Assembly (NCBI GenBank): GCA_035486095.1
Contig: DATHNM010000479.1
Span: forward strand, 18,004-82,003
Direction of reading: 5' to 3'
Length of the DNA: 64,000 nucleotides
DNA from: Bryobacteraceae bacterium
GTDB taxonomy: Bacteria > Acidobacteriota > Terriglobia > Bryobacterales > Bryobacteraceae
Both the position numbers and the translations under genes were made by a program. Shown piece by piece: positions 22,725 to 45,888 of the stretch. The number at the start of each line of letters is the position of its first letter. Position 1 is the stretch's first letter. The notes under the pieces are model-generated. The model made no database searches and was not told the origin of the DNA. It saw only the letters and a program-made list of their open reading frames with translations.

Positions 22725-23537
22725 CTACTTACTGGGCTGTTTGCGGAGATGTCCGTACAGCAACTCCTCCACAAACTCCACGCACTTGAATTCTAACAGT
22801 TGGGCATTCTTTTCCAGGTGCTTGTAGAGCGGCATGCTGATCTTCCAGGGCTTTGAAAACACCTGCGGATCTTCAATAGTCGCCTCGTAGTTCAAGACAC
22901 CGGCCGAAACGGGTGTGAACCGCTCCACCACGTGCAGCATGTCGCTGTGAAAATCGCCGGCGCGATCGAACCAGGTGGAGTCATTAAAGCCGGTGACGTC
23001 CACCACCAGCGTGTCACCGTCCCAATGCCCGGCCGACCAGCCCATCCAACTGTCCACCGGTGCCGGTCCCGGGTTATCCATATAGATGGTTCGCACCGCT
23101 CCGTCATATTCATAAGAGATCAGGATCACCTTGCCGGTTTGGACAATCTGAAACGGATACGGCATGTAGGTGGCGCGCGGCACGCCTGGCAGGTAGCATT
23201 TCACTTCCGGATCCAGCTTCAGACGGTTCGCGTAGTTTTCCTTTTTCTTCTGCGCGGCCGCCGGGAGATAGGGGATCGCGCCGCCTTCCACCACTCCGAT
23301 ACCAGGAGGCTCGGCGCCGGTCGCGCCCAGCGCCACTACTTGACCAGCTTGGGCCGAGTGGCCCTCCAAGTCCCAATTGGCCGTGTTCATAGCCTGCCAG
23401 ATGCCGTTCAGATTCGGCTTGCCGTCGGCAGTCCGGGGGGCCTTATATGATGGGGTCTGGGCGATGACGGGAACGGCGGCAACAGAGACCGCGGCGAGAA
23501 TCGCATTCAACACGGAAGCTCGAAACTGTTTTGGCAT
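22725..23537 (-). CDS. Secreted protein of unknown function, 'type D' family member (tandem copy 3, shorter)
   Basis: RTADGKPNLNGIWQA, WMGWSAGHWDGDTLVVDVTGF and ATIEDPQVFSKPWK, with a signal peptide. Confidence 0.8.
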   Translation of the reverse strand: MPKQFRASVLNAILAAVSVAAVPVIAQTPSYKAPRTADGKPNLNGIWQAMNTANWDLEGHSAQAGQVVALGATGAEPPGIGVVEGGAIPYLPAAAQKKKENYANRLKLDPEVKCYLPGVPRATYMPYPFQIVQTGKVILISYEYDGAVRTIYMDNPGPAPVDSWMGWSAGHWDGDTLVVDVTGFNDSTWFDRAGDFHSDMLHVVERFTPVSAGVLNYEATIEDPQVFSKPWKISMPLYKHLEKNAQLLEFKCVEFVEELLYGHLRKQPSK

Positions 23538-28547: not shown

Positions 28548-31500
28548 ATGACTTGGCGAACGGCCCTGATACTGTCGGTGTGGCTTGCCACTTGGGTGCC
28601 GGCATGCGCGCAGCAGCCCGGTTCCTGCAAGACGATCACGTATGAGGGACTCGCCGAAAAAGTGCCGATCCCAACATTCGCCGGCATCAGTTCGCCAGGT
28701 TGGGTGGCGGGTATCTCAGTGGTGGCCTATGGACTTCCACTGGGCGATCCCACAGGCGGCCATGCGCAATTCATCAATGAACCTTCTCCGGTAACCGCCG
28801 CCGTCTTCCTGAATGGAAGTAACGATATTACGTTCGCCACTCCGGTTTCGAGCGTTCAATATTATTACGCCACGGCCTACAGCACTACAGTGACGGCCTA
28901 CGACGCGAGCAATAACGTACTGGCGCAGGAAGTGGTTCCCGCGAATTGGTCCGGCAATCCAAATGGCTACGACGTGTGGACCCAAATCACTCCGGTGCAG
29001 GCGCCCGGCGCGAAGATATCGAGAATCAATATCTTGTCGTCGGGCCCGGCACTGAACAATTTCCTGGGCATCGACAATCTGAAAGTCTGCACCGCCATCG
29101 CTATCGATAGCGTGGAAATGACGCAGGCTATTCAGCAGATCCAACCGCTGGCCGATCTGGAAGCGAGCCTGGCAAGCACCAACGAGCCGCCAGTCCCCCA
29201 CATTTCTGGAAAACCGGGTGTGATGCGCGTCTATCTGCAGTCTGTCGCGCAGACTGCATTGGTGAATGTGCAGCTGGATATACCGGGGCTTCCCGAACAG
29301 ATCAAGACCGCGACCGCCATGCCGGGCTGCACGCCCACCCAGCAGAGATATGGGTCGAACGGGTGTCTATCCACGGACTTCTATTTCACACCGCCAAGCG
29401 GCGCCTGGACCGCGACACTGCAACTGATCGACGTTCTCAGCGCCACGACAATTGAGCAGGAGGTTCTGAATTTCAAGAGTCGTGATACGCAGGCTTTGCG
29501 CCTGGAAGCCGTATCGACATGCGATACGGTGGATGAAACGGGGCAGTGGCTTTGCGCGGACGCATCCGATCTGCAAGGTAAAGAAGCCCTGTTAGCGAAA
29601 ATTGCGCCGACGAATTCGGTAACCGTCGACATCACGGACCAGGTCATACGTCGCGATGTCAACCAGCTTGTGCCGCCGTTCCCGCCGGGAGATGACGTCA
29701 ACGATTACTGGTGGGATCTGGTGACGGCCGATCTCGGGCGAATGTATGGGTTCATAGATTCCGGACAGGATCTGTTTTTCAACCGGCATAGCACGTACCA
29801 TGGAATGGTTCGGCCCGACCTTCCTGGCAGTACCGGCGGACAGGCGGACGCAATACCCGGTCGCGGAGCAGCCAGCCGGACCAGCGCGCTCCGGTTTGCC
29901 TCGAATACCGAAACCAGTGTCGAGGTTGTGGCACACGAGACAGGGCATGCCTTAGGGTTGAAGCACACCAATGAAGGCAACCCGGCAAACCAGGTGGCTC
30001 CCCCTGGCTGCTATAGCTTCGCGGCCGATTCCTCGACGGACTGGCCTTTCCCTAACAACAATATTCAGAGCAACGACAATTTGGAAGTCGGTTTTGACGT
30101 AGCCTTAAGAACACCCATCGATCCGAACGTGACGTTCGACGTGATGAGCTATTGCAGCCCCCGCTGGATCTCGCCGCAACGCTACAAGACCATGATCACT
30201 ACGCTCGGCGGCGGCTCGGGATTTCAGCCCTCTGCGCGCCAACCCATGAGCGTTGTCACCGAAGCGTTCTGGATGGTTTCGGGCACCCTTCCGGGAACCG
30301 GCGCGCCTCAATTCGATCCAATTTTCACGCAGACCGTGCAAGGCGACACCAGCGGCGGCTCAGGCACGTATTCGTTGGAAGTGCAGAATTCCGGGGGCGC
30401 CGCGCTTTTCACGCAGCATTTCACGCCGGGAACGCCGGGCACCGAAACCAGCGGCACCGATACACAGGGCTATCCGGGTTTTGCGCAATTGATTCCGGTA
30501 ACCGCCGGCGCAGTTCGGATTGTTCTGAAAGATCCCACCAGCGCGGTGCTCGGAACCATTGCCCTGGGCGGCGTTGCTCCCACGGTCCACATTACCAACC
30601 CGACGGCCAGCTTCACCGGAGTGGGAAACATTTCGTGGACGATTACCGATCCCGATTCGTCCTCCTTCGATTCCAGGGTTTTCTATTCGCCTGATAACGG
30701 AGCGCACTATTCTGAAATCGGCGAAGTGCGAAACAGCGGCACCACGCTGCTTGCGGACTTTACTAAGCTGGCCGGATCGAACGGGCAGGGGCTGATCAAG
30801 GTGCTGGTTTCAGACGGTGTCAACACTGGCAGGGCGACTTCGGCCAACTTCAGCATTGCGAAGAAACTGCCCACCGCGGTACTGATCACCGCACCGGCCG
30901 CTAACGCCAGCCAGCCGGCCGTGGACCCGGTGCTTTTCAGCGGCGCCGCGTTCGATCCCGACGACGGCGCACTCACCGGTGCGGCTCTTAAGTGGAGTTC
31001 CAATTTGCAGGGCGCGCTGGGCACTGGCTCGCCGTTATCGGCGGCCCTTCAGCCGGGAATTCACACCATCACGCTAACCGCGACGGATTCGGACGGGAAT
31101 TCAATTAGCGCGAACGAGACAATTACGATAGGCGGGCAACCTCCCGCGTTGAGCCTGAACATCAAGAATCTGGCCGGGCCGCCCGCATCTTCGACAACTT
31201 GCATCCAGGCGACCATTGGCGCAGCGCCGGGCACCAATGGCGCACCACTTTCCTCTGTGCAATACAGTCTGAACGCAGGCGGCAACTACACAACTGTTAG
31301 TTTGAGCGCCCTCCCGTTTACTTTCACGGTGCCGGGCAGCGGCTTCATTGACATGCTGGCTCGCGCTTTTGACACCTCCAACCAATCGAACGCGCAGGCC
31401 GGTTCGTTCTTTGTCAGTAATGCCTGCCAGGCGGCGACAGTGCCCAACGTAGTGGGCGCAACGCTAACGGCGGCTCAAGCGGCGATTGCGGCGGCCCAAC

Positions 31501-33341
31501 TGGTGATCGGCAACATTACCACTGCTTCCAGCGGCAGCGTGCCGGCGGGCAACATCATCAGCGAGAGTCCGATCGCGGGCACGGTTGTGTCTCCGGGTAA
31601 TTCAGCGTCGGTGAATCTGGTTTTCTCGACGGGTTCGGGAGCGGTGAAAGTCCCGAACGTTGTAGGCGCGACCGAAGCGGCGGCAACAATGGCGATTCAA
31701 GCCGCCGGCCTGGCGGTCGGAACCGTTACCACCGCCTCCAGCAGCACCGTGGCATCCGGAAGTGTGATCAGCGAGAGCCCTGTGGCCGGGACTTCGGTAA
31801 GCGTCGGTTCGGCAGTGAATCTGAAAATCTCCACCGGCCCCGCGCAGGTGTCTGTTCCAAATGTTGTGGGGTCAACGCAAGCGGCTGCCACGACGGCCAT
31901 TACCGGCGTTGGATTAACGGTTGGAACTGTTACCACAGCGTCTAGCAGCACGGTACCATCCGGCAATGTGATCAGCGAAAGCCCGGTTGCGGGCACTCAA
32001 GTGAATGTTGGTTCAGCGGTAAATTTGGTCGTGTCTTCCGGCGCCGGAGGCACGCCGGCAGTGGTGTCCGTAACTCCGAATGCCGGCACGGGACTGTCCA
32101 ATACTTTCGCGCTGGTTTATTCCGATACCGGCGGCAATGCGAGTCTCAATCATGTGGGGGTGATCTTTAATCCGGTCGCGACTGGTGTGGGTTCCTGCTA
32201 TGTCCTCTATTACCCAGGCGCGAATCTTGTCTACCTGCTGAATAACGCAGGCAGCGCGTCCACTAAGCTAACTCCTGGTTCCGGGACGCTTTCCAACAGC
32301 CAGTGCAGCATCAGCGGCAGCGGTACATCGGTAGTGAAATCGGGCAACAGCCTTACGCTTCACCTGGCGGTTACCGCCAGCTCCACTTACACCGGCAAAC
32401 AGACCATTTTCATGTACGCCGATGACAATACCGCGGTGAACACTGGTTGGGTGAGCGAAGGAACCTGGACTCCTGCCACCAATCAGCCCCCCACGCTGGT
32501 TTCAGTGACTCCGACTCCGGCTACCGGCCTCACCAATACCTTTTCGCTGACTTACTCCGATCCCAACGGCGCTTCGGATCTGAATGTCGTTAAAGTCGTG
32601 TTCGGGCCCACCGCAAGTATCGCCAGGTCCTGTTATGTATTGTATTTTCCCGATACCAATCTCCTCTACCTGGAGAACACGGCCGGCACTGGAACTGTTA
32701 ATCCTGTCTCTGGAATACTTTCCAACAGTCAGTGCAGTATCAATGGCAACACGTCGACTGTGGGGAAATCGGGCGATAGCGTCACCATAAACCTGGTTAT
32801 GACCGCGAGTTCCACCTACACCGGTTTGCAAAACATCTTTATGTACGCTGCTGACAACAGTTCAGCGAACACCGGTTTTGTGAACAAAGGAACGTGGACG
32901 CCAGCCACCAACCAGGCGCCCGCGGCGGTATCGGTGACTCCCACGCCGGCTACGGGCCTCACAAATACTTTCGTGTTGACTTACTCAGATCCTAACGGCG
33001 CGTCTGATCTGAGCGCTATTAAAGTGGACTTCGGCGCAGCGGTCAGCACTTCCAATTCCTGCTACGTCGTGTATAGTCCGGCCACCAATCAGCTGTCGCT
33101 TGAGAACAATGCGGGAACGGCAACTACGAAGATAACTCCTGGTTCGGGGACGCTTTCGAATAATCAATGTACTATAAGCGGGAGCGGCACAACGGTAGTC
33201 AGATCGGGAGATAACATTACGCTGAACCTGGCGCTAACCGCCAGCGCCACCTACACCGCCAAGATTAGCGTCTTCATGAATGCCCAGGACAACAGCTCGG
33301 CAACATCGGGGTGGCTGAAGAAAGGAACTTGGACGCCTTAA
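28548..33341 (+). CDS. Giant secreted multidomain metzincin-type zinc metalloprotease (non-astacin head)
   Basis: Signal peptide MTWRTALILSVWLATWVPACAQ. HExxHxxGxxH in VVAHETGHALGLKHTNEG (29934-29966). Ig/PKD-like segments (GIHTITLTATDSDGNSISANETITI). Three PASTA-like units. Three ~145-aa modules collinear with those of the preceding gene. Confidence 0.85.
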   Translation: MTWRTALILSVWLATWVPACAQQPGSCKTITYEGLAEKVPIPTFAGISSPGWVAGISVVAYGLPLGDPTGGHAQFINEPSPVTAAVFLNGSNDITFATPVSSVQYYYATAYSTTVTAYDASNNVLAQEVVPANWSGNPNGYDVWTQITPVQAPGAKISRINILSSGPALNNFLGIDNLKVCTAIAIDSVEMTQAIQQIQPLADLEASLASTNEPPVPHISGKPGVMRVYLQSVAQTALVNVQLDIPGLPEQIKTATAMPGCTPTQQRYGSNGCLSTDFYFTPPSGAWTATLQLIDVLSATTIEQEVLNFKSRDTQALRLEAVSTCDTVDETGQWLCADASDLQGKEALLAKIAPTNSVTVDITDQVIRRDVNQLVPPFPPGDDVNDYWWDLVTADLGRMYGFIDSGQDLFFNRHSTYHGMVRPDLPGSTGGQADAIPGRGAASRTSALRFASNTETSVEVVAHETGHALGLKHTNEGNPANQVAPPGCYSFAADSSTDWPFPNNNIQSNDNLEVGFDVALRTPIDPNVTFDVMSYCSPRWISPQRYKTMITTLGGGSGFQPSARQPMSVVTEAFWMVSGTLPGTGAPQFDPIFTQTVQGDTSGGSGTYSLEVQNSGGAALFTQHFTPGTPGTETSGTDTQGYPGFAQLIPVTAGAVRIVLKDPTSAVLGTIALGGVAPTVHITNPTASFTGVGNISWTITDPDSSSFDSRVFYSPDNGAHYSEIGEVRNSGTTLLADFTKLAGSNGQGLIKVLVSDGVNTGRATSANFSIAKKLPTAVLITAPAANASQPAVDPVLFSGAAFDPDDGALTGAALKWSSNLQGALGTGSPLSAALQPGIHTITLTATDSDGNSISANETITIGGQPPALSLNIKNLAGPPASSTTCIQATIGAAPGTNGAPLSSVQYSLNAGGNYTTVSLSALPFTFTVPGSGFIDMLARAFDTSNQSNAQAGSFFVSNACQAATVPNVVGATLTAAQAAIAAAQLVIGNITTASSGSVPAGNIISESPIAGTVVSPGNSASVNLVFSTGSGAVKVPNVVGATEAAATMAIQAAGLAVGTVTTASSSTVASGSVISESPVAGTSVSVGSAVNLKISTGPAQVSVPNVVGSTQAAATTAITGVGLTVGTVTTASSSTVPSGNVISESPVAGTQVNVGSAVNLVVSSGAGGTPAVVSVTPNAGTGLSNTFALVYSDTGGNASLNHVGVIFNPVATGVGSCYVLYYPGANLVYLLNNAGSASTKLTPGSGTLSNSQCSISGSGTSVVKSGNSLTLHLAVTASSTYTGKQTIFMYADDNTAVNTGWVSEGTWTPATNQPPTLVSVTPTPATGLTNTFSLTYSDPNGASDLNVVKVVFGPTASIARSCYVLYFPDTNLLYLENTAGTGTVNPVSGILSNSQCSINGNTSTVGKSGDSVTINLVMTASSTYTGLQNIFMYAADNSSANTGFVNKGTWTPATNQAPAAVSVTPTPATGLTNTFVLTYSDPNGASDLSAIKVDFGAAVSTSNSCYVVYSPATNQLSLENNAGTATTKITPGSGTLSNNQCTISGSGTTVVRSGDNITLNLALTASATYTAKISVFMNAQDNSSATSGWLKKGTWTP
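31435..32040 (+). repeat. 3 tandem PASTA-like units (coding)
   Basis: VPNVVGATLTAAQAAIAAAQLVIGNITTASSGSVPAGNIISESPIAGTVV...; VPNVVGATEAAATMAIQAAGLAVGTVTTASSSTVASGSVISESPVAGTSV...; VPNVVGSTQAAATTAITGVGLTVGTVTTASSSTVPSGNVISESPVAGTQV... Confidence 0.75.
32055..33338 (+). repeat. 3 tandem in-frame coding repeats (~143-145 aa) of the same two-Cys module as 27039..28328
   Basis: Unit starts are at 32055, 32490 and 32919. Unit i here is most similar to unit i of the upstream protein. For example, unit 1 of both reads ALVYSDT.GNA.LNHVGVIF...SCYVLYYP.AN..YLLNNAG.AST. Confidence 0.9.
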
Positions 33342-34732: not shown

Positions 34733-36505
34733 CTAGCGCGCCGGAGTAGTAGCTGTAACTTGGTTGCTCGGCCCCGACGTGACGCCTCTGGGATTATAAG
34801 ACTCAACTTCGAAATAATACGTAGTCGAAGCACGCACCGTGGCCGTGTAGGGTGGCCCCGATACGTTGGCGTGAATGGACAGCGACGTGGGCGAGGTGCC
34901 CTCTAGAATTCGGTATCCGCCTACGCCCCCGATCCCCGTGGAAGGTGTCCAACTGAGCGACACAGTGCCGGAGGTAACGGCGGTGACTTTCAGATTCGTG
35001 GGCACCGAAGGCGGCGTGATATCGATAGTTTCGATCACGAGTGGAGCCGACATGGCCGAGACATTTCCCGAGGCGTCCGTCGCGGAGAGAGTATAACTGT
35101 ACGTTTCCCCGGACACCAGTCCTTTATCGTTATAGCCCAGCAAGCTGGTGGTGCTCAAAAGAGTACCGTCACGATATAGGTTGTAGGCCGAGACGCCGAC
35201 ATTATCCGAGTCCGGCGTCCAGACCAGGTTGAATCCCGTGGTTCCAATCACGGGTGCCGTCGGGGGAGCCGGCGTAGAAGGAAGCGTGGTGTCGGCTGGG
35301 ATGTTGTCGGTTTCCCAGGCAAGTCCGGTGGGAGTAAACGCGCCCACCAGAACAGCGTTCGTCGCGGCAGAATCGGAGTCCTTCAAGATGGTGGCTTCCG
35401 CCAGCAAACCGTAGACGCTGTAATCCAGATACGCGAAAAAGTAGTGCACCGAAAAGGGCGATAGGAATGCCAGCTGCTTGTAATTGGCGAAATTTACCAC
35501 CGCTTGCAAAAATGAAGCGTCAATCGGTTGCCAGAAGCTGAAGGGGTCGCGGCCTTCGATCACGGCGTAGCCCACCTTGCCTACCTCAGAGTCTCGAATC
35601 TTCCAATCCCAGCACTCACTCATACCAACTTCCTTTCCGGCTGCGTGGATGGTGTCCGCCGCCGTGAGCGCGTTGGTGAAATAGGTCTTATTGATTGGAT
35701 ATATGTGCATGTCGACGAAGTCCATCTGCAGCGCCGCAAGAGCCGTGACATATTGCATGTAATTCGTGGTCCAAGTGCCGACACCTGCTCCGACCTTGAC
35801 GTTCTGCACCCCGGCCGTCTGCAAGGTTGTCAAAACCTGCTGGACCAGTTGAATCACCCCGGCCACCGTGTTGAGATTGGTCTGGCCGCTTACCGAAGCT
35901 TCGCTGTTTGATTCAGTCAGTACGGTCATGTAATCCGGGCTCAGTAATTGCGCCACGGCAAGGGCGTTGGCCGCGCGCCCTGCTACGTAATCAGTCCAAG
36001 ACAGGGTCTTGGCGTAAGCCTGAAAAACGGAAGCCTGGTTTCCAGTTAGCGGCAACCCGAGCGATGCTTCCACTACGATCTTCATGCCCCGGGCGCGAAT
36101 ATCCTGAAACAGCTGTTGATAAAAGCTGACAAACTGCTGGTATTGCGCGGGGTTGCCGCTATAGGTGTAAAAAGGCTGATAAAAAATCGGGAAGTTCAGG
36201 TGGATGGTGACCGCATTGGCTCCCAGGGCCTGCATCTCCTGCAGTTGCGTTGTCACTGTTCTGGTGTAGTAACTCGCCCCCAGCAGCGAAGTGTATTGAT
36301 CTGAGTTGGCGGTTGACAGTTGGGGAGCATCTAGATAGGGATACTTGCTTCCATTCCAGCCGGAGTTCACGGTGGCATCGAATGCGGCAATCTGCGTGGT
36401 CAAAGTGCTATAGACGTCTTGATACAGGGCCGGTACAGGTGGGGTTTGGGCGGCCAAAGACCCGGCTGTCAAGAACACTACGGACGCACAGATTTGTAAG
36501 CGCAT
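34733..36505 (-). CDS. Secreted TIM-barrel glycoside-hydrolase-like protein with two C-terminal FN3 domains (tandem paralog 1)
   Basis: Signal peptide. An alternating beta/alpha N-domain with candidate acid/base (MTVLTESNSE) and nucleophile (GMSECWDW) Glu residues. Two FN3 units (FNLVWTPDSDNVGVSAYNLYRDG...ETYSYTLSATDASGNVS; PTNLKVTAVTSGTVSLSWTP...YYFEVESYN). The GH call is weak; the FN3 call is strong. Confidence 0.5.
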   Translation of the reverse strand: MRLQICASVVFLTAGSLAAQTPPVPALYQDVYSTLTTQIAAFDATVNSGWNGSKYPYLDAPQLSTANSDQYTSLLGASYYTRTVTTQLQEMQALGANAVTIHLNFPIFYQPFYTYSGNPAQYQQFVSFYQQLFQDIRARGMKIVVEASLGLPLTGNQASVFQAYAKTLSWTDYVAGRAANALAVAQLLSPDYMTVLTESNSEASVSGQTNLNTVAGVIQLVQQVLTTLQTAGVQNVKVGAGVGTWTTNYMQYVTALAALQMDFVDMHIYPINKTYFTNALTAADTIHAAGKEVGMSECWDWKIRDSEVGKVGYAVIEGRDPFSFWQPIDASFLQAVVNFANYKQLAFLSPFSVHYFFAYLDYSVYGLLAEATILKDSDSAATNAVLVGAFTPTGLAWETDNIPADTTLPSTPAPPTAPVIGTTGFNLVWTPDSDNVGVSAYNLYRDGTLLSTTSLLGYNDKGLVSGETYSYTLSATDASGNVSAMSAPLVIETIDITPPSVPTNLKVTAVTSGTVSLSWTPSTGIGGVGGYRILEGTSPTSLSIHANVSGPPYTATVRASTTYYFEVESYNPRGVTSGPSNQVTATTPAR

Positions 36506-36673: not shown

Positions 36674-38452
36674 TTATTCCGCGGGAGTAGTGACCGTGAT
36701 TTCGTTGCTTGGTCCGGACGTGACTCCGATTGGGTTGTATGACTCCACTTGGTAATAGTAAGTTGTCGAGGGACGGGCATAGGGATCGGTGTAAGGCGGG
36801 GCCGTGACGTCGGCGTGGATGGACATGGACCCCGGCGCGGTGCCTCGTAAAACCCGATATCCTCCCACACCTCCAATTCCCGTGGAGAGGTTCCACTTCA
36901 ATGTGACGGAGGTGGATGTGTCGGCGGTCTTTACCAGATTAGTGGGAACCGAAGGCGCGGTAGTGTCGATGGTTTCCACTACCAAGGGAGCAGATCTGGC
37001 TGATACATTCCCGGAGGCGTCCACCGCCGATAGTTTATAGGTGTAGGTTTCCCCGGGGACCAGGCCGTTATCGTAATAGACCAGCCCGCTGGTGGTGCCT
37101 ATCATGGTCCCGTCGCGAATTACTCGATAGGAAGAGACGCCGACATTGTCGGTGTCCGCCGTCCATGCCAGATTGAAACCAGTGCTTCCGATCACAGGCG
37201 CCGTGGGCGCGGCCGGGGTGGCAGGGGGAGTGGTGTCTGTCGGGATGTTCTGACGTTCCCAGGCGTGTCCGGTGGGCGTAATGTCACCGGCTTGAACGGC
37301 GGTGCTCGAAATCGAGCTGGCATCCGACAAGATGGTGTCGAGGGGCAGCAACCCGTAGGTGTTGTAGTCCAGATAAGAGAAAAAGTAGCGCGTCCAGAAT
37401 GGTGATACGAAGGCGAGCTGTTTGTAATTCGCGAAATTCACGATGGCCCGAAGAAATGCGACATCCACCGGTTCCCAGAAGCTGAAGGGATCGCGGCTCA
37501 TGATGGTCGCGTAATCAATCACGCCCAGCTCGTTGTCTCGAATTTTGAAATCCCAGCACTCGCTCATCCCCACTTGCTTGCCAGCGGCATGAATCGTGTC
37601 CGCCGCAGTGAGTGCGGCGGTGAAGAAGCCCTTGTTTATCGGATAGATGTGCATGTCGACGAAGTTTAGTTCCGGCATGCTGGCATAGGCCTGCACGTAT
37701 TGCATATAGTTCTTGGTCCAGGTTCCTGCGCCCGCTCCGATCTGGATGTTTTTCACCTTAGCCTGTTGCAGCGCGTTGAGAATCTGCTGCACTAGCTGCG
37801 TTGTGCCTGTGACGGTGTCCAGGTTGGTCTGGCCGCTCGCTGTCGCCTCGGTGTCCGGCTCGCCCATCACCACCAGGTAATCCGGTTCAATAAGCTGCGC
37901 CACTGCCAAGACGTTGGCCACGCGTCCGGCCATGTACTGAGACCAGGAGAGGGTCTTTAAGTAAGGCTGATACACCGGGAACTGATTTCCGGTTAACGGC
38001 ATTCCGAGCGCCGCTTCAATCACCAGTTTCATTCCCCGGGCCCGAATATCCTGAGCCAGTTGCTGGTAGAAGCTCACGAACTGTTGGTACTCCGCCTGTT
38101 CGCCTAAATAGGTGTAGAAGGGTTGATAGAACGTCGGGAAGTTGATATGAACGGTCACCGCATTAGCCCCCAGGGCCTGCAGTTCGCTCAGCTGTTCCGT
38201 CACCGCGCCGGAGTAGTAGTTGGCTGACAACAGCTGGGTGTATTGGTCAGAACCCGCGGCCAGCAATTGCGGCGCGTCCAGATAGGGGTACTTACTTCCG
38301 TTCCAGCCTGAATTCATTTGCGTCTCGAAGCCCGTGATCTGCGTGTTCAAGGTGTTATAGAGATCCTGAAACACAACGGGTACGGGTGGGGCCTGGGCCG
38401 CCAACGAATGGGCAGTAAGCAATACGGCAAAGGTAAGAATATTAAAACGCAT
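36674..38452 (-). CDS. Secreted TIM-barrel glycoside-hydrolase-like protein with two FN3 domains (tandem paralog 2)
   Basis: Collinear with 34733..36505 over the full length (VVMGEPDTE, GMSECWDF, FNLAWTADTDNVGVSSYRVIRDG, YYYQVESYN). The start is moved to ATG 38452 (MRFNILTFAVLLTAHSLAAQ) by analogy with the paralog. Confidence 0.5.
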   Translation of the reverse strand: MRFNILTFAVLLTAHSLAAQAPPVPVVFQDLYNTLNTQITGFETQMNSGWNGSKYPYLDAPQLLAAGSDQYTQLLSANYYSGAVTEQLSELQALGANAVTVHINFPTFYQPFYTYLGEQAEYQQFVSFYQQLAQDIRARGMKLVIEAALGMPLTGNQFPVYQPYLKTLSWSQYMAGRVANVLAVAQLIEPDYLVVMGEPDTEATASGQTNLDTVTGTTQLVQQILNALQQAKVKNIQIGAGAGTWTKNYMQYVQAYASMPELNFVDMHIYPINKGFFTAALTAADTIHAAGKQVGMSECWDFKIRDNELGVIDYATIMSRDPFSFWEPVDVAFLRAIVNFANYKQLAFVSPFWTRYFFSYLDYNTYGLLPLDTILSDASSISSTAVQAGDITPTGHAWERQNIPTDTTPPATPAAPTAPVIGSTGFNLAWTADTDNVGVSSYRVIRDGTMIGTTSGLVYYDNGLVPGETYTYKLSAVDASGNVSARSAPLVVETIDTTAPSVPTNLVKTADTSTSVTLKWNLSTGIGGVGGYRVLRGTAPGSMSIHADVTAPPYTDPYARPSTTYYYQVESYNPIGVTSGPSNEITVTTPAE

Positions 38453-38815
38453 TGTAGATCCTGGTGTGATTTTTCTAGGCACGCTCTCGGGTCAAAACTG
38501 GCGCTGTCAGGCGGCGCGTTGCCGGCCAAGTGCGAATACAACACCACCGACCTTCCGGACCGTCTTGACAGGACCTGCCAAGCCTTAGGCCGGTGAATCG
38601 GCAGAAAAACGACTAGACTTCAGTACCGAACTAATAGGAGTACTGGTATTGTACCGCACACTCACTGGGAGATGCCTGGAAAGCTTTGCGCACTGGGTAT
38701 TCGCTCTTGGCAATGAACGCTGTAAATCGTTGAGTATAGAGCGAAAGTACTGGTACGTTATGCCTGGTACGGGTGCAAAAGTTTTCCGTATACTAGGTGA
38801 ACCTCTTCTTTTTTA

Positions 38816-40519
38816 ATGGCCTCTATCAGCCGTTCCAACGGTCGTAGAGGGAGTCGGAGTGATATGAGATCTGAGCTCAAACGGAGCCTCGGGCCGGCGT
38901 TGCTGTGCTCATTGACGCTCCTCTGCGCCATGTCGACGAAGGTATCGGCGCAAACCCTGCTTACCCATCATTTGCGCAAAGAAGTAGCCAGCGGCGAAGC
39001 ATCCTTCGTACATCTTCTGCCGGTCAATCAGACTCTGCGATTGGATATCGCTCTTCCGCTGCGTAACCGGGACGAACTGGAGGATCTGGCGCAGCAGATT
39101 TACGATCCCCAAAGCCCGTTGTTCCACCAATACCTCAGCGTGGCGGAGTTCACGGAACGGTTCGGTCCCACCGAGGAAGATTACGCCGCAGTGATGCGGT
39201 TCGCGGAACGGAATGGATTGACGGTCACCAGCACATCCCGCAATCGAGTACTCCTGAGCGTCAGGGGCTCGGTGCGGAATATCGAAAGAGCCTTCCAGGT
39301 GACCATGGCTTCTTATCGGCACCCTACGGAATCGCGCGTATTTTATGCGCCAGACCGGGAACCTTCTCCGGCGGGCCTGGCAGTGCCGCTGTGGCACGTT
39401 GCCGGCCTGGATAATTTCTCCATCCCGCGCCCCGCCAGTCTGCGGAGAAATACGGAAGTGACCAGCGACGCCCTCACCGGTTCAGCGCCGGGCGGAAATT
39501 TTTGGGGCAGCGATATCCGCGCGGCCTACTATGGCGGCGTTCAGCTTACCGGGGCCAGCCAGGTGGTGGGGTTGCTGGAATTCGGCGGCTACAATATGTC
39601 GGACGTGCAGGCCTATTTCACCAAAGCAGGCCAGCCATTAAACGTGCCCGTGAAAGCCGTCTCAACGGATGGATCGCCGGTAACCTGCACGGGAACTTGC
39701 GACGATTCCGAACAGGCGTTGGATATTGAACAGGCCATCTCCATGGCGCCGGGCTTAATCCAGGTACGCGTTTATGTCGCGCGGGCCAGCGACCTCAGCG
39801 TCTTTAACCAGATGGCTACCGAGAACTACGCCAAGTCATTGAGTTGCTCCTGGGGCTGGAGTCCGCCCGATCCAACTGTCGATGACCCCATATTCCTTGA
39901 ATTCGCGGTACAGGGTCAGACGCTATTTGTTTCTTCTGGCGACAAGGGCGCCTACGGCTCTGGCGCCCTGGGGACCTTGAATCTGTATCCGGCCTTCGAT
40001 TGGTACGTGACAGCGGTGGGCGGCACGGTTCTCACCACCCACGGCCCTGGCGGCGCCTGGAAATCGGAAACTGCGTGGAGTGAAAGCGGCGGCGGGATTG
40101 CTCCAGACATCACGCTTCCCAAGTATCAGAAACTCACCGGCGTGATCACGCAGGCAAATCAGGGCTCGCTGACCATGCGGAATTGCCCGGACGTGGCCAT
40201 GGAAGCGAACACCGACAATTACATCTGCTACAACGGCATTTGCACCGGCGGGTGGGGCGGTACCAGTTTCGCGGCGCCGCGCTGGGCGGCTTTCCTGGCG
40301 TTGCTCAATGAACAGAGAACCGTAAACGGCAAGCAGCCCATCGGGTTCATCAACAATCGCATTTATGCCATTGGCACCGGGTCAGGCTACAGCAGCTTCT
40401 TTCACGACATCACCAGCGGCACTAACGGCAAGTTTTCGGCGGAGACCGGCTACGACTTGGTAACTGGCTGGGGCAGTCCGAATAGCGCCGGTGTGTTCGA
40501 AACGTCCCTGTCAAAATAG
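38816..40519 (+). CDS. S53-family serine peptidase (sedolisin/kumamolisin-like) with pro-domain
   Basis: Pro-kumamolisin-type activation domain (LEDLAQQIYDPQSPLFHQYLSVAEFTERFGPTEEDYAAVMRFAERNGLTV). Catalytic region with DIEQAISMAPG, SSGDKGAYG and the Ser motif GGTSFAAPRWAAF (Ser codon 40265-40267). Confidence 0.85.
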   Translation: MASISRSNGRRGSRSDMRSELKRSLGPALLCSLTLLCAMSTKVSAQTLLTHHLRKEVASGEASFVHLLPVNQTLRLDIALPLRNRDELEDLAQQIYDPQSPLFHQYLSVAEFTERFGPTEEDYAAVMRFAERNGLTVTSTSRNRVLLSVRGSVRNIERAFQVTMASYRHPTESRVFYAPDREPSPAGLAVPLWHVAGLDNFSIPRPASLRRNTEVTSDALTGSAPGGNFWGSDIRAAYYGGVQLTGASQVVGLLEFGGYNMSDVQAYFTKAGQPLNVPVKAVSTDGSPVTCTGTCDDSEQALDIEQAISMAPGLIQVRVYVARASDLSVFNQMATENYAKSLSCSWGWSPPDPTVDDPIFLEFAVQGQTLFVSSGDKGAYGSGALGTLNLYPAFDWYVTAVGGTVLTTHGPGGAWKSETAWSESGGGIAPDITLPKYQKLTGVITQANQGSLTMRNCPDVAMEANTDNYICYNGICTGGWGGTSFAAPRWAAFLALLNEQRTVNGKQPIGFINNRIYAIGTGSGYSSFFHDITSGTNGKFSAETGYDLVTGWGSPNSAGVFETSLSK

Positions 40520-40730
40520 CCGCAGCGGTGGGACCATCGGTAGCGATGAAACTCACGCTGCAATCTGGCTTGCTGCTGCCGGCCGGCGCCGGGACCAGCG
40601 CAGACCGCTTCGTCCGCATGGTTTATTCGCAACCGCAGGCCGGCAAGTAAGGACTCGACCTGCGTATCTCGCAAGATGCCGGGCTGGATTACCGCCAGAC
40701 TTCTTTTGCGATAGACTCGGTTGCTTACTC

Positions 40731-42521
40731 ATGTCTATTTCCGCGGCGCAAAGATTCGGGGCCATCATCCTGCTGACGGCGGGCTCCGCCTGGCCCCAGA
40801 TCGATTTGGGCGGCGAGTGGGCCGCCACCTTCCATGAAGACCTGCAGCATCGCGGGGGCGTAAGGTTGGGCGACTATACCGGGCTGCCGCTCAACGAATC
40901 GGGTTGGCGCAAGGCGCAGAGCTGGGACGAATCGGCTCGCTCTACTTTCGAGCGCCAATGCATCCCCCACGTGGTCACCTACGCGATGCGTGGTCCGGCG
41001 AACATTCGCTTCTCGAAGGTCGTCGACCCGGTGTCGGGAGAGCTGCAGGCTTACAGCTTACTAGGCAGTTATGGACGGCCCCGCACCATCTGGATGGACG
41101 GCCGCGAGCATCCTTCTCCACTTGCGCCGCACACCTGGGCCGGTTTCTCTACCGGACACTGGGAACGAAACATGCTCGTAGTGGAAACCACGCATATCAA
41201 GACGGGCTGGCTGCTGCGCAACGGCGCGCCTACCAGCGACCTGGCAACGATGACCGAATATTACACGCGCTACGGCAACTATCTGATGCTGGCCAGCTTC
41301 GTGAACGATCCCGTCTACCTGGATGAGCCCTTCATCCGGACTTCGAACTTTGTGCTGAGCCAGACCACCAGTGCCGACGCCTGGGGAAACTGCGGGCCGG
41401 CGCAGATCATCGACGAACTGGGCGGCCGTCCCAAAGGCTGGGTGGCGCATTACCTTCCCGGCCAGACGGCGCACGTCCAGGAGTTCCTTACCAAGAGCGG
41501 AGTTCCAGCAGAAGGGGCGCGAGGCGGTGGGGCCACTACCTATCCCGAATACATCGCGAAATTGGAAAAGAACGATTTGGACAACCGCATCTTCCCTCCG
41601 CCCACGCCGGGCAAAAGCTTTCCTCGCGTGATTTCTCCCGAAACCACCGATCCGCAAGGCGAGATCAGCGTGCTGCCGGTTCAGGGAAACCTGTACATGC
41701 TCTCGGGCGCGGGCGCCAACATGGCCGTCCAGGTGGGCGAAGACGGAGTCCTGCTGGTGGACACGGGCGATGGCAAAGCCAGCGACAAGGTGATCGCGGC
41801 CATCCGGAAATTGTCCAACAAACCAATTCGCTTCATTGTGGACACCAGCGTAGATGCGGATCACATGGGGGGCAACGAACGTCTGGCCGCACTCGGGAAA
41901 GCCCCTGGTGGCGGACGGGCCAGTGACAGTGGGGGCCCCGGCGCGATGGTGTTTGCGCAGGAAGCAGTGCTGGCCGCGGTGAGCGCGCCCAGCGGCCAGA
42001 AGGCGCCCTTGCCCGTTGGCGCGTGGCCCACCGAATCCTATCCGGATTGGAAGGAACTATCGCTGAACAACGAAGCGATTCAGATTTTCCACGTGCCCGC
42101 CGCACATACCGATGGCGACAGCCTGGTGTTCTTCCGGCGTTCCGATGTCATTGTCACCGGCGACATATTCGGGACCAATACTTTTCCGGTGATCAACAAA
42201 GGCGGCAGCATCAACGGCGTAATTGACGGCTTGAACCGCATAATCGAGATCACCATCCCGAAGGACTGGCAGGAAGGCGGGACCATGGTTATCCCCGGAC
42301 ACGGGCGCATCTGCGACGAGGCCGACGTAGTGGAATACCGGGACATGGTCACTATCATCCGCGATCGGATTCAGGACTCCATCAAGAAGGGCATGACACT
42401 CGATCAGGTGAAGACTTCGCGGCCCACGCTAGAGTACGACTCGCGTTACGGATCAGACAGCGGGCCCTGGACCACGTCGATGTTTATCGAGGCCGTGTAT
42501 CGTAGCCTGGCGGGGAAATGA
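40731..42521 (+). CDS. Fusion protein: 'type A' unknown domain plus atypical MBL-fold domain (single ORF equivalent to 3011..3949 plus 3946..4887)
   Basis: Start at ATG 40731 (MSISAAQRFGAIILLTAGSAWPQ, a signal peptide). N-half: TIWMDGREHPSPLAPHTWAGFSTGHWERNMLVVETTHIKTGWLLRNG. Pro-rich linker: NRIFPPPTPGKSFPRVISPETTDPQ. C-half: VLLVDTG, TSVDADH (41847-41864), AHTDGDS, VIPGHGR. Confidence 0.85.
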   Translation: MSISAAQRFGAIILLTAGSAWPQIDLGGEWAATFHEDLQHRGGVRLGDYTGLPLNESGWRKAQSWDESARSTFERQCIPHVVTYAMRGPANIRFSKVVDPVSGELQAYSLLGSYGRPRTIWMDGREHPSPLAPHTWAGFSTGHWERNMLVVETTHIKTGWLLRNGAPTSDLATMTEYYTRYGNYLMLASFVNDPVYLDEPFIRTSNFVLSQTTSADAWGNCGPAQIIDELGGRPKGWVAHYLPGQTAHVQEFLTKSGVPAEGARGGGATTYPEYIAKLEKNDLDNRIFPPPTPGKSFPRVISPETTDPQGEISVLPVQGNLYMLSGAGANMAVQVGEDGVLLVDTGDGKASDKVIAAIRKLSNKPIRFIVDTSVDADHMGGNERLAALGKAPGGGRASDSGGPGAMVFAQEAVLAAVSAPSGQKAPLPVGAWPTESYPDWKELSLNNEAIQIFHVPAAHTDGDSLVFFRRSDVIVTGDIFGTNTFPVINKGGSINGVIDGLNRIIEITIPKDWQEGGTMVIPGHGRICDEADVVEYRDMVTIIRDRIQDSIKKGMTLDQVKTSRPTLEYDSRYGSDSGPWTTSMFIEAVYRSLAGK

Positions 42522-43291
42522 GTATGCGAATGGCGCTTGCGGCATTACTCATGTTGGCGCTGGGAGCACCGGCTACTCCGCAAACACCGGCGGCGGCGCC
42601 GGCTCCTAAAACTCCGAAGGATGCCGCTCCCATCGATCTGACGGGCAATTGGGTTTCAGTGGTCACGGAAGACTGGCGCTGGCGCATGCTGATCCCGAAG
42701 AAAGGCGACTATACCAGCGTCCCGGTGAGTGCCGAGGGACGCAAGCTGGCGGATGCATGGGACCCCTCCCAGTTGGCAACCGATGGCTGCAAGGCCTATG
42801 GCGCGGCGGCGCTGATGCGCGTGCCGGGGCGGCTGCAGATTACCTGGGAGAACGAGAGCACCCTGCGAATCGATACCGATGCGGGCCAGCAAACGCGGCG
42901 GCTCTATTTTAATAAGGCGCAAAAGCCGCAGTCCCAACGGACGTGGCAGGGGAATTCGGCGGCCGAATGGGACCGCATAACGCAGCCCGGCGGCCTGGGC
43001 GTGAGTCTGCAACAAGGACTGGGCAAGCCCGGTGCGCTCAAAGTGATCACTACGAATCTCAAGGCCGGATATCTGCGTAAGAACGGCGTCCCTTACAGCG
43101 AAGATACCGTGATGACGGAATACTTCGATCGGCTGTCGGCCTATGGAACAGACTGGTTGACGGTGTTCACCATCGTGGAAGATCCGCACTACTTGAACCA
43201 GCCGTTCATCACCAGCACGCATTTCAAGCGCGAGCCCGACCGGTCAAAGTGGGCGCCCTCGCCCTGTGAGCAGGGCGCGAGCAGCAAGTAA
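42518..43291 (+). CDS. Secreted 'type C' family member (paralog of 4884..5699)
   Basis: IDLTGNWVSVVTEDWRWRML, ALKVITTNLKAGYLRKNGVPYS and IVEDPHYLNQPFITSTHFKREPDRSKWAPSPC. ATGA overlap with the upstream gene. Confidence 0.8.
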   Translation: MSMRMALAALLMLALGAPATPQTPAAAPAPKTPKDAAPIDLTGNWVSVVTEDWRWRMLIPKKGDYTSVPVSAEGRKLADAWDPSQLATDGCKAYGAAALMRVPGRLQITWENESTLRIDTDAGQQTRRLYFNKAQKPQSQRTWQGNSAAEWDRITQPGGLGVSLQQGLGKPGALKVITTNLKAGYLRKNGVPYSEDTVMTEYFDRLSAYGTDWLTVFTIVEDPHYLNQPFITSTHFKREPDRSKWAPSPCEQGASSK

Positions 43292-43347
43292 CTCTTGAGA
43301 ATCCCCGTATCGGTGGGCCGCTGCACGACGAGGAATGAGGAGGTTTC

Positions 43348-44661
43348 ATGCAACGAATTTGGATTATTTTTCCCGGCATCCTGCTACTTGCGTCGCTTGG
43401 GAACGCAGCTTCACCCGACGGTCCGACTGTCAAACGATTCTTGACCAAACCGCTGGTAATTGAAGACCAGGGCAGCTTCTTCATTGGCGGCGTGCCGAAA
43501 GTAACTCAATACGCCACTGTGCCCGCTCCGGGCGCAGCCAGTCAAGAGCTGGTCACCGACCAGATCACGATCGGCCAGATGTACGTGCAGTTCGAGATAC
43601 CGCAAAACAAGAAGCGGCGTATGCCGCCGGTGATTATGGTGCACGGGTCCAGCCATACGGCAGCCTGTCTGGAATCGACGCCGGACGGGCGCGAAGGCTG
43701 GTATCCCTACTTTGTGCGCAAGGGCATTTCCACCTACCTGGTGGATCAGGCGGGACGCGGGCGCTCCGGATTCGATGAATCGGTCATCCATGAGGCCGCG
43801 GCCATGATCAAGAGTGGAGATGTTCAGAGCGGCTTGCGCACCATTCCCTCCTTTGGAAGGATTACCGACAATGGCGCCTGGACCAGATGGTTCGGCCACC
43901 TGATCCCGGACGGTTCCACCATTCTCACTGGCAAGCTGATCCAGCATGGCGATCCAGGCGACCCTCCCAGCGATGACGCGCTGCACACCGACGACTATCG
44001 TCCGGCGTATCCCTTTACGGCGGTGGACGCGAACATAGCCGCGCGCACCGGAGCCATCGCTCAGTCGCCCGCGGGCCCGAACAATTACTACGCTCTCGAA
44101 TACTACAAGCAGTTGGTCCCTAATTCAGAGGTGACGCTTCCCAGTTCGGTGTGCGCCACTTGCGATCCCAAAGAGATTATTCCAGCCAATACCTGGACGC
44201 CGCAGGATCTTGCGCTACTGGTCGAAAAGCTGGGTGGAGCAATCGTGGTGACGCATTCTCAATCCGGAATCATGGGGCACCACATGGCGCGAATTCTGAA
44301 GGAAAGGGGCCATCTGGATCTGCTGAAGGGTTTGATCACCATCGAAGGCTCCTGCTCATTTCCCAACAGCGGACTGAAAGCCGAAGATTTCGACACCATC
44401 CCTTACTTGGCCTTGAAGGGAGACTACACCGCCACCAGCGAGGTTTGCCAGACGTCGGTGAACGAAATCAATGCTCGGCGTAAGAGCGGCCACGGAGCGG
44501 CGAAAGCGGACTACATTAAGCTGGACGAATTGGGCAATCCGGTGTTCAAGGGCACCACCCACATGATGATGCTGGGCACCAACAATCTGGAAGTGGCGGA
44601 CGTGCTGCTGAATTGGGTGGACGAAAACATCGGGCCCAAGAACGCAAAGCACGGGAAATAA
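43348..44661 (+). CDS. Secreted alpha/beta-hydrolase-fold esterase-like protein
   Basis: Signal peptide MQRIWIIFPGILLLASLGNA. PPVIMVHGSSHTAA. Nucleophile elbow VTHSQSGIMG. Confidence 0.7.
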   Translation: MQRIWIIFPGILLLASLGNAASPDGPTVKRFLTKPLVIEDQGSFFIGGVPKVTQYATVPAPGAASQELVTDQITIGQMYVQFEIPQNKKRRMPPVIMVHGSSHTAACLESTPDGREGWYPYFVRKGISTYLVDQAGRGRSGFDESVIHEAAAMIKSGDVQSGLRTIPSFGRITDNGAWTRWFGHLIPDGSTILTGKLIQHGDPGDPPSDDALHTDDYRPAYPFTAVDANIAARTGAIAQSPAGPNNYYALEYYKQLVPNSEVTLPSSVCATCDPKEIIPANTWTPQDLALLVEKLGGAIVVTHSQSGIMGHHMARILKERGHLDLLKGLITIEGSCSFPNSGLKAEDFDTIPYLALKGDYTATSEVCQTSVNEINARRKSGHGAAKADYIKLDELGNPVFKGTTHMMMLGTNNLEVADVLLNWVDENIGPKNAKHGK

Positions 44662-44679
44662 TCGGCGGAAGAATTAAAC

Positions 44680-45888
44680 TCACGCCGGCAGCCGTTTGCC
44701 GGCAACAACCACGGCGTAGGGGAAGAGTTTCTGGTGACCGGTACGCTTGGTGTCCGCGTTATCGACGAACTCGAAATCTCCTTCCTTCAAGTCGAGCACT
44801 GTTACGTCGGCAACCGCGCCGGTTCGAAGCGATCCATAGGCCTTGAATTCGGGGATGGCGCGGGCCGCGTTGGCCGTCACCCGCGCGACCACCTGATCCA
44901 CCGGCATGCCCAGCATGATGAACTTCGACATGACGTTCGGAAGAGTGAACACCTGATAGGTTCGCGCGGCGGCGGTCATGTCGGACGAGATGGTGTCCGG
45001 CAGAAAATCCTGCTGCAGGGCGCGCTCGGCTACCTCCCAGGTGATGTGCCCGACGCGCCCGTTTCCCACGTCGAAAAGAATTCCGCGCTGTCTTGCCTCG
45101 CGGACCTGCGGCAGCACCCGCCCGTTATCATCCAGGATTCCGTGCGGCGCCGGTGAATAGAGGTGAGTAACAATGTCGCCGGGCCTGAGCAATGAAAGAA
45201 TCTCGGGAAGGGTCGACACGGTTTGGCCTATGTGCACCATGATGGGCACCTTCAACGGATCGGCCACTTGACGCGCGCGCCGCACGGCTTCCAGATCGTT
45301 GTCGCCGGCCACGGTGCGCGAAAGCCGCGCCTTGATACCCACAATCCACTGACGATTCTGTTCGATCACGCGGCGTGTTGCATCCACCTTTGCGTTCTCG
45401 ATATGGATGAGTTCGCCGTCCGGCTCCACTCCCAGATGCCCTATATTCAGAAGTATCCGCACCCGGTTCGGCGCGGTTTTAGCGATGGCGAGCAGGTCGT
45501 CGGGATTGTCAGAGCCGCGGGAACCGGCATCCACTAGCGAGGTGACCCCATCGGCCAGGCAAGTTGCCGGTGGCATCAGCTTGTCGGCCAGATGCGTGTG
45601 AATATCGATCAGGCCGGGCGTTACTAACTTTCCTGTTGCATCCAGCACCTCCTTGGCTGAGGAAGCGGGGATATTCGGCCGGATGGCTGAGATACGGCCG
45701 TCGCGAATAGCCACATCCGCCATCAGATCCATGCGCTGGGCAGCGTCCAGCACGCGGCCGCCTCGAATAACCAAGTCGTATTGGGCCGCGAACATGCGCG
45801 CGGGATCAGCAAGAATCAGGGGCGCCAGAGCACCGGCGCGAAGAAACTGCCGGCGGATCATCTTGGAAGTTTCGGCGGCGCTGAGCAT
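44680..45888 (-). CDS. Amidohydrolase/deacetylase-family metallohydrolase with a Tat-like leader
   Basis: MIRRQFLRAGALAPLILA leader. GGRVLD...PGLIDIHTHL (HxH metal site). Later VPIMVHIG and ILFDVGNG, typical of dihydroorotase-like amidohydrolases. Confidence 0.75.
   Translation of the reverse strand: MLSAAETSKMIRRQFLRAGALAPLILADPARMFAAQYDLVIRGGRVLDAAQRMDLMADVAIRDGRISAIRPNIPASSAKEVLDATGKLVTPGLIDIHTHLADKLMPPATCLADGVTSLVDAGSRGSDNPDDLLAIAKTAPNRVRILLNIGHLGVEPDGELIHIENAKVDATRRVIEQNRQWIVGIKARLSRTVAGDNDLEAVRRARQVADPLKVPIMVHIGQTVSTLPEILSLLRPGDIVTHLYSPAPHGILDDNGRVLPQVREARQRGILFDVGNGRVGHITWEVAERALQQDFLPDTISSDMTAAARTYQVFTLPNVMSKFIMLGMPVDQVVARVTANAARAIPEFKAYGSLRTGAVADVTVLDLKEGDFEFVDNADTKRTGHQKLFPYAVVVAGKRLPA

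Follow-up and report, generated by a model that had tools for sequence, protein, structure and literature searches.

The window analysed here, a 64,000-nucleotide stretch of DNA from a soil acidobacterium, a Bryobacteraceae bacterium (GenBank assembly GCA_035486095.1, contig DATHNM010000479.1, positions 18,004 to 82,003), carries two copies of a predicted secreted module made up of three kinds of protein: a β-rich protein designated A, a metallo-β-lactamase (MBL)-fold protein, and C, a paralogue of the A barrel (Table 1). In the first copy each protein is encoded by its own gene. In the second copy A and the MBL are joined in a single open reading frame (ORF), and the counterpart of C, designated C', follows. 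Comparison of the split and fused forms, both in the window and in related genomes, makes it reasonably probable, as judged from sequence, that A and the MBL form one functional unit.

All of the gene junctions within the two copies are ATGA overlaps, located at 3946-3949, 4884-4887 and 42518-42521. Analysis by BLASTP related the copies part by part: residues 28-280 of the fused protein matched the standalone A with 48% identity (E 9e-78), residues 314-593 matched the standalone MBL with 49% identity (E 4e-88), and C' matched C with 46% identity (E 4e-70). The ORF listing and these alignments bear out three statements of the original prediction, which was made from the sequence alone: that the order A, MBL, C recurs at 40731-43291, that A and the MBL of this copy share one 596-aa ORF, and that C follows with an ATGA overlap. 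The frame of the fused gene is open from 40491, and the ATG start at 40731 is supported because 596-aa homologues span 100% of the query and because NCBI made the same call (HTB20304.1). C', as read from the ATG at 42518, was missing from a collection of 15 billion proteins that includes its neighbours; its start is probably called differently by other annotators (the N terminus, MSMRM, contains three Met codons).

Table 1. Features of the two module copies and of the genes downstream of the fused copy
Feature	Position	Strand	Details
Standalone A gene	3011-3949	+	312 aa; HTB20277.1, "hypothetical protein"
Standalone MBL gene	3946-4887	+	313 aa; HTB20278.1
Signal peptide of standalone MBL	3946-3999	+	Ends ...AAVSGCVAMA
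Variant metal motif of standalone MBL, TSMDADH	4222-4242	+	
Standalone C gene	4884-5699	+	271 aa; HTB20279.1, "hypothetical protein"
Fused A-MBL gene	40731-42521	+	596 aa; NCBI HTB20304.1, named "MBL fold metallo-hydrolase"; PF00753 at residues 330-490
Predicted signal peptide of fused protein, MSISAAQRFGAIILLTAGSAWPQ	40731-40799	+	Hydrophobic N terminus in translation; helix 5-20 in model
A domain of fused protein	40800-41585	+	GxW strand, β-rich core, helical tail ending GGATTYPEY...
Pro-rich interdomain linker, RIFPPPTPGKSFPRVISPETTDPQGE	41586-41663	+	Residues 286-311; replaces A stop codon and MBL signal peptide
MBL-fold domain of fused protein	41664-42518	+	49% identity to standalone MBL; predicted local distance difference test score (pLDDT) >90 over most of residues 312-596
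Variant metal motif 1 of fused MBL, TSVDADH	41844-41864	+	In place of THxHxDH
Ligand motif of fused MBL, AAHTDGDS	42099-42122	+	
Ligand motif of fused MBL, VTGDIF	42153-42170	+	
Ligand motif of fused MBL, IPGHGR	42291-42308	+	
C' gene	42518-43291	+	257 aa; secreted paralogue of A barrel; ATGA overlap with fused gene
Weak α/β-hydrolase match	43348-44661		Abhydrolase_6, 22.7 bits, under the 26.3 cut-off
Amidohydrolase with RRQFLR twin-arginine motif	44680-45888	-	NF006689, 375 bits against a cut-off of 371

The MBL part of the fusion begins at ISVLPVQGNLYML, which aligns with the mature N terminus of the separate MBL. From the YPEY motif to the VQGN motif there are 42 residues in the fusion, compared with 31 residues of A tail plus 15 residues of mature MBL N terminus in the split form; therefore, the fusion looks like a split pair minus the stop codon and the MBL signal peptide. 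The predicted signal peptide of the fused protein was read from the translation rather than taken from a predictor, and its cleavage site is putative. In the standalone MBL of the window, the VSGC sequence within the signal peptide resembles a lipobox, and on this sequence the protein could be a lipoprotein; VSGC is not conserved in other split MBLs.

The fused architecture is widespread. A search of 5.8 billion proteins yielded at least 113 clusters of 585-620 aa, with 62-100% identity, among the 120 clusters listed, and these fused-type clusters come from Bryobacteraceae, Terriglobia and Vicinamibacterales in NCBI, JGI, ENA and Logan assemblies. At five orthologous loci (L001-L004 and L010), too, the ORF is uninterrupted and C follows it. 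In the window itself, GC content at third codon positions (GC3) in the ORF frame stays at 0.65-0.88 throughout 41460-41760, and the ORF listing of the window contained no signal-peptide-like segment in other frames across the junction. The homologous clusters, the orthologous loci and the in-frame GC3 together exclude a frameshift artefact, a possibility that the original prediction had raised.

One genome per species was scanned, which returned at least 591 matching stretches, and the best 79 loci were analysed. Almost all of these are from Acidobacteriota (Bryobacterales, Vicinamibacterales and Terriglobia), and a few are from Gammaproteobacteria, including Ca. Rariloculus. The survey of fused and split forms, also proposed in the original prediction, gave 76 fused genes and 35 split pairs in these loci. 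Several module copies per genome were often seen, and the arrangements (M, MBL; AM, fused gene) comprised AM alone, which was the commonest, AM-C, A-M-C, AM beside A-M-C, A-M-C-C and A-A-A-M. Where the pair was split, A lay immediately upstream of the MBL in every case (35/35), and in 13 of the 35 pairs one in-frame stop codon alone separated the two. An excess of same-frame junctions, considered in connection with read-through, was rejected, since the 16 of 35 in frame are not clearly above the one-third expected.

The signal peptides, scored by hydropathy without a dedicated predictor, follow the gene arrangement. Among separate MBLs clear of the locus edges, 33 of 38 have a hydrophobic signal segment of their own, with a median maximal 11-residue hydropathy of 2.45, and most of the remaining five resemble frameshifted or fragmentary copies. 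The corresponding median for the linkers of 71 fused homologues is 0.48, with no signal segment; 12 sample linkers are 27-39 aa long, rich in Pro, Ser, Thr and Ala, variable in sequence and not hydrophobic. The linker coordinates, junction lengths and hydropathy values agree with the original prediction, which had placed a Pro-rich linker at about 41560-41670, had read it as standing in for the A stop codon and the MBL signal peptide, and had let the MBL domain start at the equivalent of the mature N terminus of the separate protein.

On the MBL-domain tree, the fused or split state changed 12 times (10 to 12 times in six bootstrap replicates), compared with a mean of 29 for shuffled labels. 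Therefore, the state is inherited, yet it has switched many times, and the tree indicates that fusion arose or reverted repeatedly in related bacteria. When a representative library was searched with the split A, 116 A-only matches and 31 A-MBL fusions were obtained. This is the pattern of a Rosetta stone: A and the MBL occur either separately or as one polypeptide, in the same order, and both states are present in this window. The Rosetta-stone argument is strengthened because A is always directly upstream when split and because some 10 to 12 changes of state have occurred. The upstream order, the signal-peptide pattern and the changes on the tree thus favour the view, put forward in the original prediction, that the coexistence of split and fused forms points to A and the MBL acting as one unit. 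On these sequence comparisons A and the MBL are an obligate genetic pair, both predicted to be exported, and we infer that they may be in physical contact. The AlphaFold model of the fused protein has a predicted template modelling score (pTM) of 0.82, which suggests, indirectly, a defined packing of the two domains.

The place of C is different. It adjoins 12 of 69 fused genes (17%) and 22 of 38 separate MBLs (58%), and for 32 fused genes no C was found within the locus sequence examined, which extended up to 8 kb on either side. The description of the module as a triad consequently holds in part: A, the MBL and C are present in both window copies, but C is an optional third gene and a paralogue of A. 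In one representative library protein, P0126 (501 aa), A is fused directly to C, and neither an MBL nor an internal signal peptide is present; its sequence suggests that A and C may also associate with each other. In L037 (10407-12398, + strand), the MBL ORF runs in frame into C (…KSLSTMKFKLPILILAAAAGLCAQ…). A mature M-C fusion was ruled out here because the start codon and signal peptide of C are retained; the arrangement reflects either recent stop loss or read-through, or an assembly error.

A and C are 33% identical in pairwise alignment (E 3e-26), and their profiles align over the whole barrel with an hhalign probability of 100% (E 8.6e-42), which identifies them, at the sequence level, as paralogues. 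They have in common the motifs DL(S/T)GxW...ED, GDYxx(I/L)PxN, WD...QC, TTHxKxGYLRxNGxPxS, TEY, DPxYLxxP and a C-terminal PC. Unlike C, A continues into a conserved tail of some 75 residues with GGAETMYPEY at its end. Across 82 homologues, C77, H80, H134, H155, K157, R163, N164 and C221 of the A domain are invariant, as are G28 and W30, the counterparts of which in C (G31 and W33) are likewise invariant. A G-x-W motif on the first strand is a lipocalin signature. Neither A, C nor C' had a Pfam or NCBIfam match at E <= 0.01, a 52-sequence A profile found no PDB sequence at E <= 10, the source names returned for A and C were all "hypothetical protein", and no literature report on the module or the family was found. 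Acidobacteriota of soil and peat are rich in members of this family, which is large: A retrieved 3203 representative clusters (50% identity) at E <= 1e-3, 251 of them at E <= 1e-30, and 7611 of 8000 scored candidates matched C at E <= 1e-5.

AlphaFold models give about nine strands, with GxW on the first, both for C (pLDDT 74) and for the A part of the fused protein (pLDDT 50-85); the strands of the A domain fall within residues 32-209 and helices within 247-279. Foldseek searches with the C model gave faint matches to calycins, namely, fatty acid-binding proteins (FABPs) and avidins (E 0.13-0.3, probability 0.5-0.63, template modelling [TM] score on the target 0.43-0.47), and in searches with the fused model MBL matches dominated. 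On these models, A and C are probably calycin-like barrels. They resemble calycins (lipocalins, FABPs, avidins and bacterial lipocalin-like domains) in the N-terminal G-x-W strand, the approximately eight or nine antiparallel strands, secretion and a conserved Cys pair; however, they have no significant sequence or structure match to calycins and are twice the size of a lipocalin, and A differs further in its conserved helical C-terminal extension of about 75 aa.

The window also holds more distant relatives of the barrel. Three tandem genes without a Pfam match (20763-21692, 21694-22707 and 22725-23537, all on the - strand) match the core of the A barrel profile in their centres at 27-37 bits and have the motif W-G-x-S-x-G-H-W-D-G-N/D-T-L-V-V-D. 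The gene at 59496-60548 (- strand) represents another architecture, in which a CarboxypepD_reg domain (75 bits) at the N terminus is combined with an A-like barrel core (38 bits) at the C terminus. The barrel-core motif in the distant window relatives is W-G-x-S-x-G-x-W-E/D-G-D/N-T-L-V-V-D/E-T-T, and the tandem genes, on sequence similarity, suggest a wider secreted superfamily.

Both MBLs belong to the superfamily defined by PF00753 (Lactamase_B), with 38.5 bits for the fused and 41.1 bits for the split protein against a cut-off of 22.7. Neither has the canonical metal-binding motif: S-x-D-x-D-H is found in place of H-x-H-x-D-H, and both retain the downstream His, Asp and His ligands. Written as a string of seven ligands, the canonical site is HHDHHDH; 62 of the 114 family MBL domains from the genome loci have it, and an S/N-D-D-H-H-D-H variant recurs. 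In the 120 closest relatives of the split MBL, all of about 300 aa, SDDHHDH occurs in 95, and the ligand columns are conserved at 0.93-1.00 compared with 0.92 for the mean column. Because the variant is so frequent and its ligand columns lie at or above the average, the split-clade site is read as a conserved alternative that is presumably functional. Other invariant MBL motifs are GGN after motif 1, HTDGD, RRSD, DWQEGGT and GRxxDExDxxEYRD.

The best NCBIfam matches of both window MBLs are SoxH-type proteins, which include PP_2678 of Pseudomonas putida and are likewise exported MBL-fold proteins of about 290 aa. The scores (84.0 and 63.8 bits against a cut-off of 280 for TIGR04559; 50.3 and 46.0 bits against 300 for TIGR04558) lie so far under the curated cut-offs that membership in SoxH/TIGR04559 was ruled out, and the MBL of the fused module is only distantly related to this group. 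SoxH-type proteins lack an A or C partner, and the window modules lack a rhodanese or SoxYZ-like one. The SoxH-like proteins, too, still await characterisation (PMC12997753).

Identity with class B β-lactamases was also rejected, given the motif and the subclass scores: all matches to the B1, B2 and B3 models reached 15-39 bits against cut-offs of 100-750. The mono-zinc B2 enzymes (CphA and Sfh-I), which are among the weak NCBIfam matches, are instructive in that their first site-1 ligand is also replaced (N116 in B2, S or N in the family MBLs) and their catalysis relies on the second metal site. They differ in score (19-28 bits against cut-offs of 240-575), in having no partner domains and in that the family MBL carries H118 -> D as well. 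The sequence provides no reason to expect β-lactamase activity.

In Foldseek searches, the MBL part of the fused protein matched 8d2z, SdsA1, Pisa1, Chd and B1 MBLs, the closest structures being 13-19% identical. An MBL-superfamily protein of Burkholderia cenocepacia from structural genomics, 8d2z, is the closest in both fold (E 4e-15) and sequence (E 1.6e-6), and it too departs from HxHxDH, with SHYHAVR in the alignment. The chlorothalonil dehalogenase Chd (6uxu; fold match E 1e-12) is a dehalogenase with a canonical Zn site. Unlike the fused protein, 8d2z and Chd are single-domain proteins (18-19% identity). The alkylsulfatases SdsA1, Pisa1 and YjcS (E 4e-13 to 1e-11, with SdsA1-type matches at ranks 3-5) offer a likeness in architecture, since their MBL core is fused to an accessory domain that is thought to recruit substrate. 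However, this domain is C terminal and SCP2-like, not an N-terminal β-barrel; the alkylsulfatases also have a dimerisation domain, canonical HxHxDH and no paralogous third protein, and they are 13-17% identical to the fused MBL. Membership was ruled out by motif, architecture and scores. Two further candidates were set aside: the soil MBL phytases (PMC6584368), which are PF12706 members without an A or C partner, and the JGI product name "cyclase", which looks like an automatic transfer and for which nothing was found in support.

It can be envisioned that in the split form A and the MBL would be translated from genes that overlap or adjoin, with a separate signal peptide for the export of each protein, and that in the fused form one signal peptide would export both domains, held together by a flexible Pro-rich linker. 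C, an A-type barrel without the helical tail, might be a third subunit that is not always needed, or else carry a second ligand. In the likeliest model, the barrel would take up a small ligand through its conserved loops (TTHxK-G-x-L-R-x-N-G and GDY-x-x-P-x-N, with the Cys pair) and hand it to the MBL metal centre in the periplasm, where the variant S-x-D-x-D-H...H...D...H centre would use mainly the second metal position, as the mono-zinc B2 enzymes do. Ligand capture is proposed because of the GxW first strand, the all-β core of about nine strands and the faint FABP and avidin matches, and we hold it less firmly than the existence of the unit itself. By analogy, the barrel might present substrate much as in SdsA1, where the SCP2 domain feeding the MBL core would be the counterpart of its role.

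Several observations weigh against this reading of the module as a metallohydrolase served by a barrel. In the 82 closest relatives of the fused protein, all seven canonical ligands are retained in only 14 (17%), and the second metal site is broken in 46 (56%). Replacements by R, Q, N, S, A, T or Y are seen at the ligand positions, whose columns are conserved at 0.50-0.95 compared with 0.77 for the mean column; ligand columns conserved below the average are unusual for metal-dependent hydrolases. C is absent from most fused loci. The barrel models are of moderate confidence (pLDDT 74-78), and the best PDB match of the C model has an E value of 0.01, with TM scores on the query of no more than 0.28, so the fold assignment is weak. 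In addition, the choice of loci favours the fused query, their stop-to-stop ORFs were classified with self-built hidden Markov models for A, M and C, and the tree was built by neighbour joining only, from 110 domains. Since the metal site is non-canonical in both window copies and not conserved in the fused clade, the label "MBL" is no guarantee of a hydrolase.

The same loss of ligands speaks for the most serious alternative, in which the fused-clade MBL would be a pseudoenzyme, a non-catalytic platform for the A barrel, and the conserved function (ligand binding, carrying or sensing) would reside in the A and C barrels. Among the sampled loci, the ligand pattern is non-canonical in 44 of 76 fused MBLs compared with 8 of 37 separate MBLs, a difference on which no statistical claim is based because the proteins are phylogenetically non-independent. 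The A domain has more invariant residues than the MBL, its conserved loops coincide with the low-pLDDT segments of the model, and PqsE bound to RhlR appears in the Foldseek list at rank 20. MBL-fold proteins that act as non-catalytic platforms have precedents in CPSF-100 and IntS9, and PqsE has a non-catalytic role. However, the fused copy in the window retains SDDHHDH, the pattern stably conserved in the split clade, and so this particular protein may well bind metal; more than half of the family domains from the loci are fully canonical; and the strong conservation of the MBL outside its ligands (GGN and GRxxDExDxxEYRD) fits a catalytic or a scaffolding role alike. On balance we consider a pseudoenzyme unlikely, but worth keeping in view. 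A more far-reaching version is that A and C constitute a new, very large secreted family of calycin-like barrels, with over 3000 clusters at the 50% identity level and the more distant relatives in the window in addition, that assembles on an MBL-fold protein, which in the fused lineage would be a dead scaffold, with the chemistry or binding located in the barrel loops (TTHxK...RxNG, QCxPH and the Cys pair). We regard this as speculative and rather doubtful; if it were true, this would make the module a novel type of binding or catalytic unit in the periplasm rather than an MBL hydrolase to which an accessory domain is attached.

A second alternative is that A, the MBL and C are merely coregulated, carrying out consecutive steps or independent tasks without physical association, and that the fusions reflect operon coupling. 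Rosetta-stone fusions also join sequential enzymes, and since so many split pairs lie one in-frame stop codon away from fusion, fusion would be mutationally cheap. Nevertheless, the linkers of the fused proteins have lost the signal peptide and become Pro rich, and the architecture persists down to 62% identity, which points to selection rather than accident. The repeated changes of state and the packed two-domain model suggested by the pTM also count against coregulation alone, and A and C fall into no recognisable catalytic family; we judge this explanation improbable. Finally, the fused protein HTB20304.1 comes from a metagenome-assembled genome (MAG), and a few apparent splits in other MAGs (e.g., L062 and L035) look like frameshifted fusions, but a sequencing or assembly artefact, through a missed stop codon or a frameshift, is negligibly probable, given more than 20 clusters of exactly 596 aa (82-92% identity) from independent projects, the orthologous loci and the continuous in-frame GC3 without signal-peptide-like sequence in other frames.

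The favoured reading, that A and the MBL act as one unit, does not touch on any open question of long standing, and the databases already list the proteins as "MBL fold metallo-hydrolase" or "hypothetical protein". What appears to be new is an MBL-fold protein that has an N-terminal barrel partner not described before, together with a third subunit paralogous to that partner. The A/C family has no family model, solved structure or literature, and its repeated fusion to the MBL is its only functional handle: the fusion indicates which proteins to coexpress and copurify and offers structural and biochemical studies a naturally occurring single-chain construct. The two MBL clades, one with a variant site that is stable in the split form and the other with ligands that drift in the fused form, provide a natural test of whether the MBL fold can persist in a non-catalytic role.

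As for the surrounding genes, the first copy lies near TolC-like and HDOD genes, and the second lies near sedolisin, α/β-hydrolase and amidohydrolase genes. The original prediction had named the latter two as the downstream genes; the amidohydrolase with its twin-arginine motif on the opposite strand is present as described, and the α/β hydrolase stands as a weak match only. The window neighbours are not conserved beside orthologous AM-C pairs, and a promoter and terminator scan of 40300-44900 found no more sites than in shuffles. Neighbours that recur in the 79 loci include an A-like paralogue with DUF3471, SDR, pyrroloquinoline quinone (PQQ)-cytochrome c dehydrogenase, CMD, MFS, MacB, DUF763, TonB-type receptors and phospholipase C. 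They were rejected as a functional clue, since they follow Bryobacterales synteny blocks and are not common across phyla. The four proteobacterial loci have A-M-C alone in common and differ in their neighbours, and gene content thus indicates that the A-M-C module is self-contained. Its multiplication in Bryobacterales suggests diversified periplasmic scavenging or detoxifying activities.

The commonest recurrent neighbour is the further A-like paralogue, with 24 genes in 19 loci (L002, L022, L031-L033, L036, L040, L042, L045, L046, L051, L057, L058, L061-L063, L066, L068 and L078); in the one representative scanned (L033, 1873-3498), the C-terminal DUF3471 match scored 28.7 bits against a cut-off of 29.3. 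In a gammaproteobacterial MAG (L076, 7263-13592), A-M-C and, upstream of it, a gene weakly similar to BIM1 (copper acquisition) form a run on one strand; downstream come a further MBL, a SnoaL-like protein and a protein of 518 aa that contains an MBL. Two adjacent PQQ-dependent dehydrogenases lie in the window at 12513-14123 and 14137-16305 (- strand), the second with an N-terminal cytochrome c domain, and similar quinohaemoprotein genes occur within a few genes of A, M or C in eight other loci. A link between the module and quinohaemoprotein dehydrogenases is possible; the best, subthreshold NCBIfam match of the MBL is a "quinoprotein relay" MBL.

Elsewhere in the window, two adjacent genes at 34733-36505 and 36674-38482 (- strand) encode proteins of about 600 aa, each with a fibronectin type III domain at the C terminus and a weak Rha78A-like immunoglobulin match; the rest of both proteins had no Pfam match at E <= 0.01. 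The genes at 23781-28331 and 28548-33341 (+ strand) encode proteins of 1516 and 1597 aa in which an astacin/M12-type metallopeptidase is combined with PASTA domains, an unusual combination.

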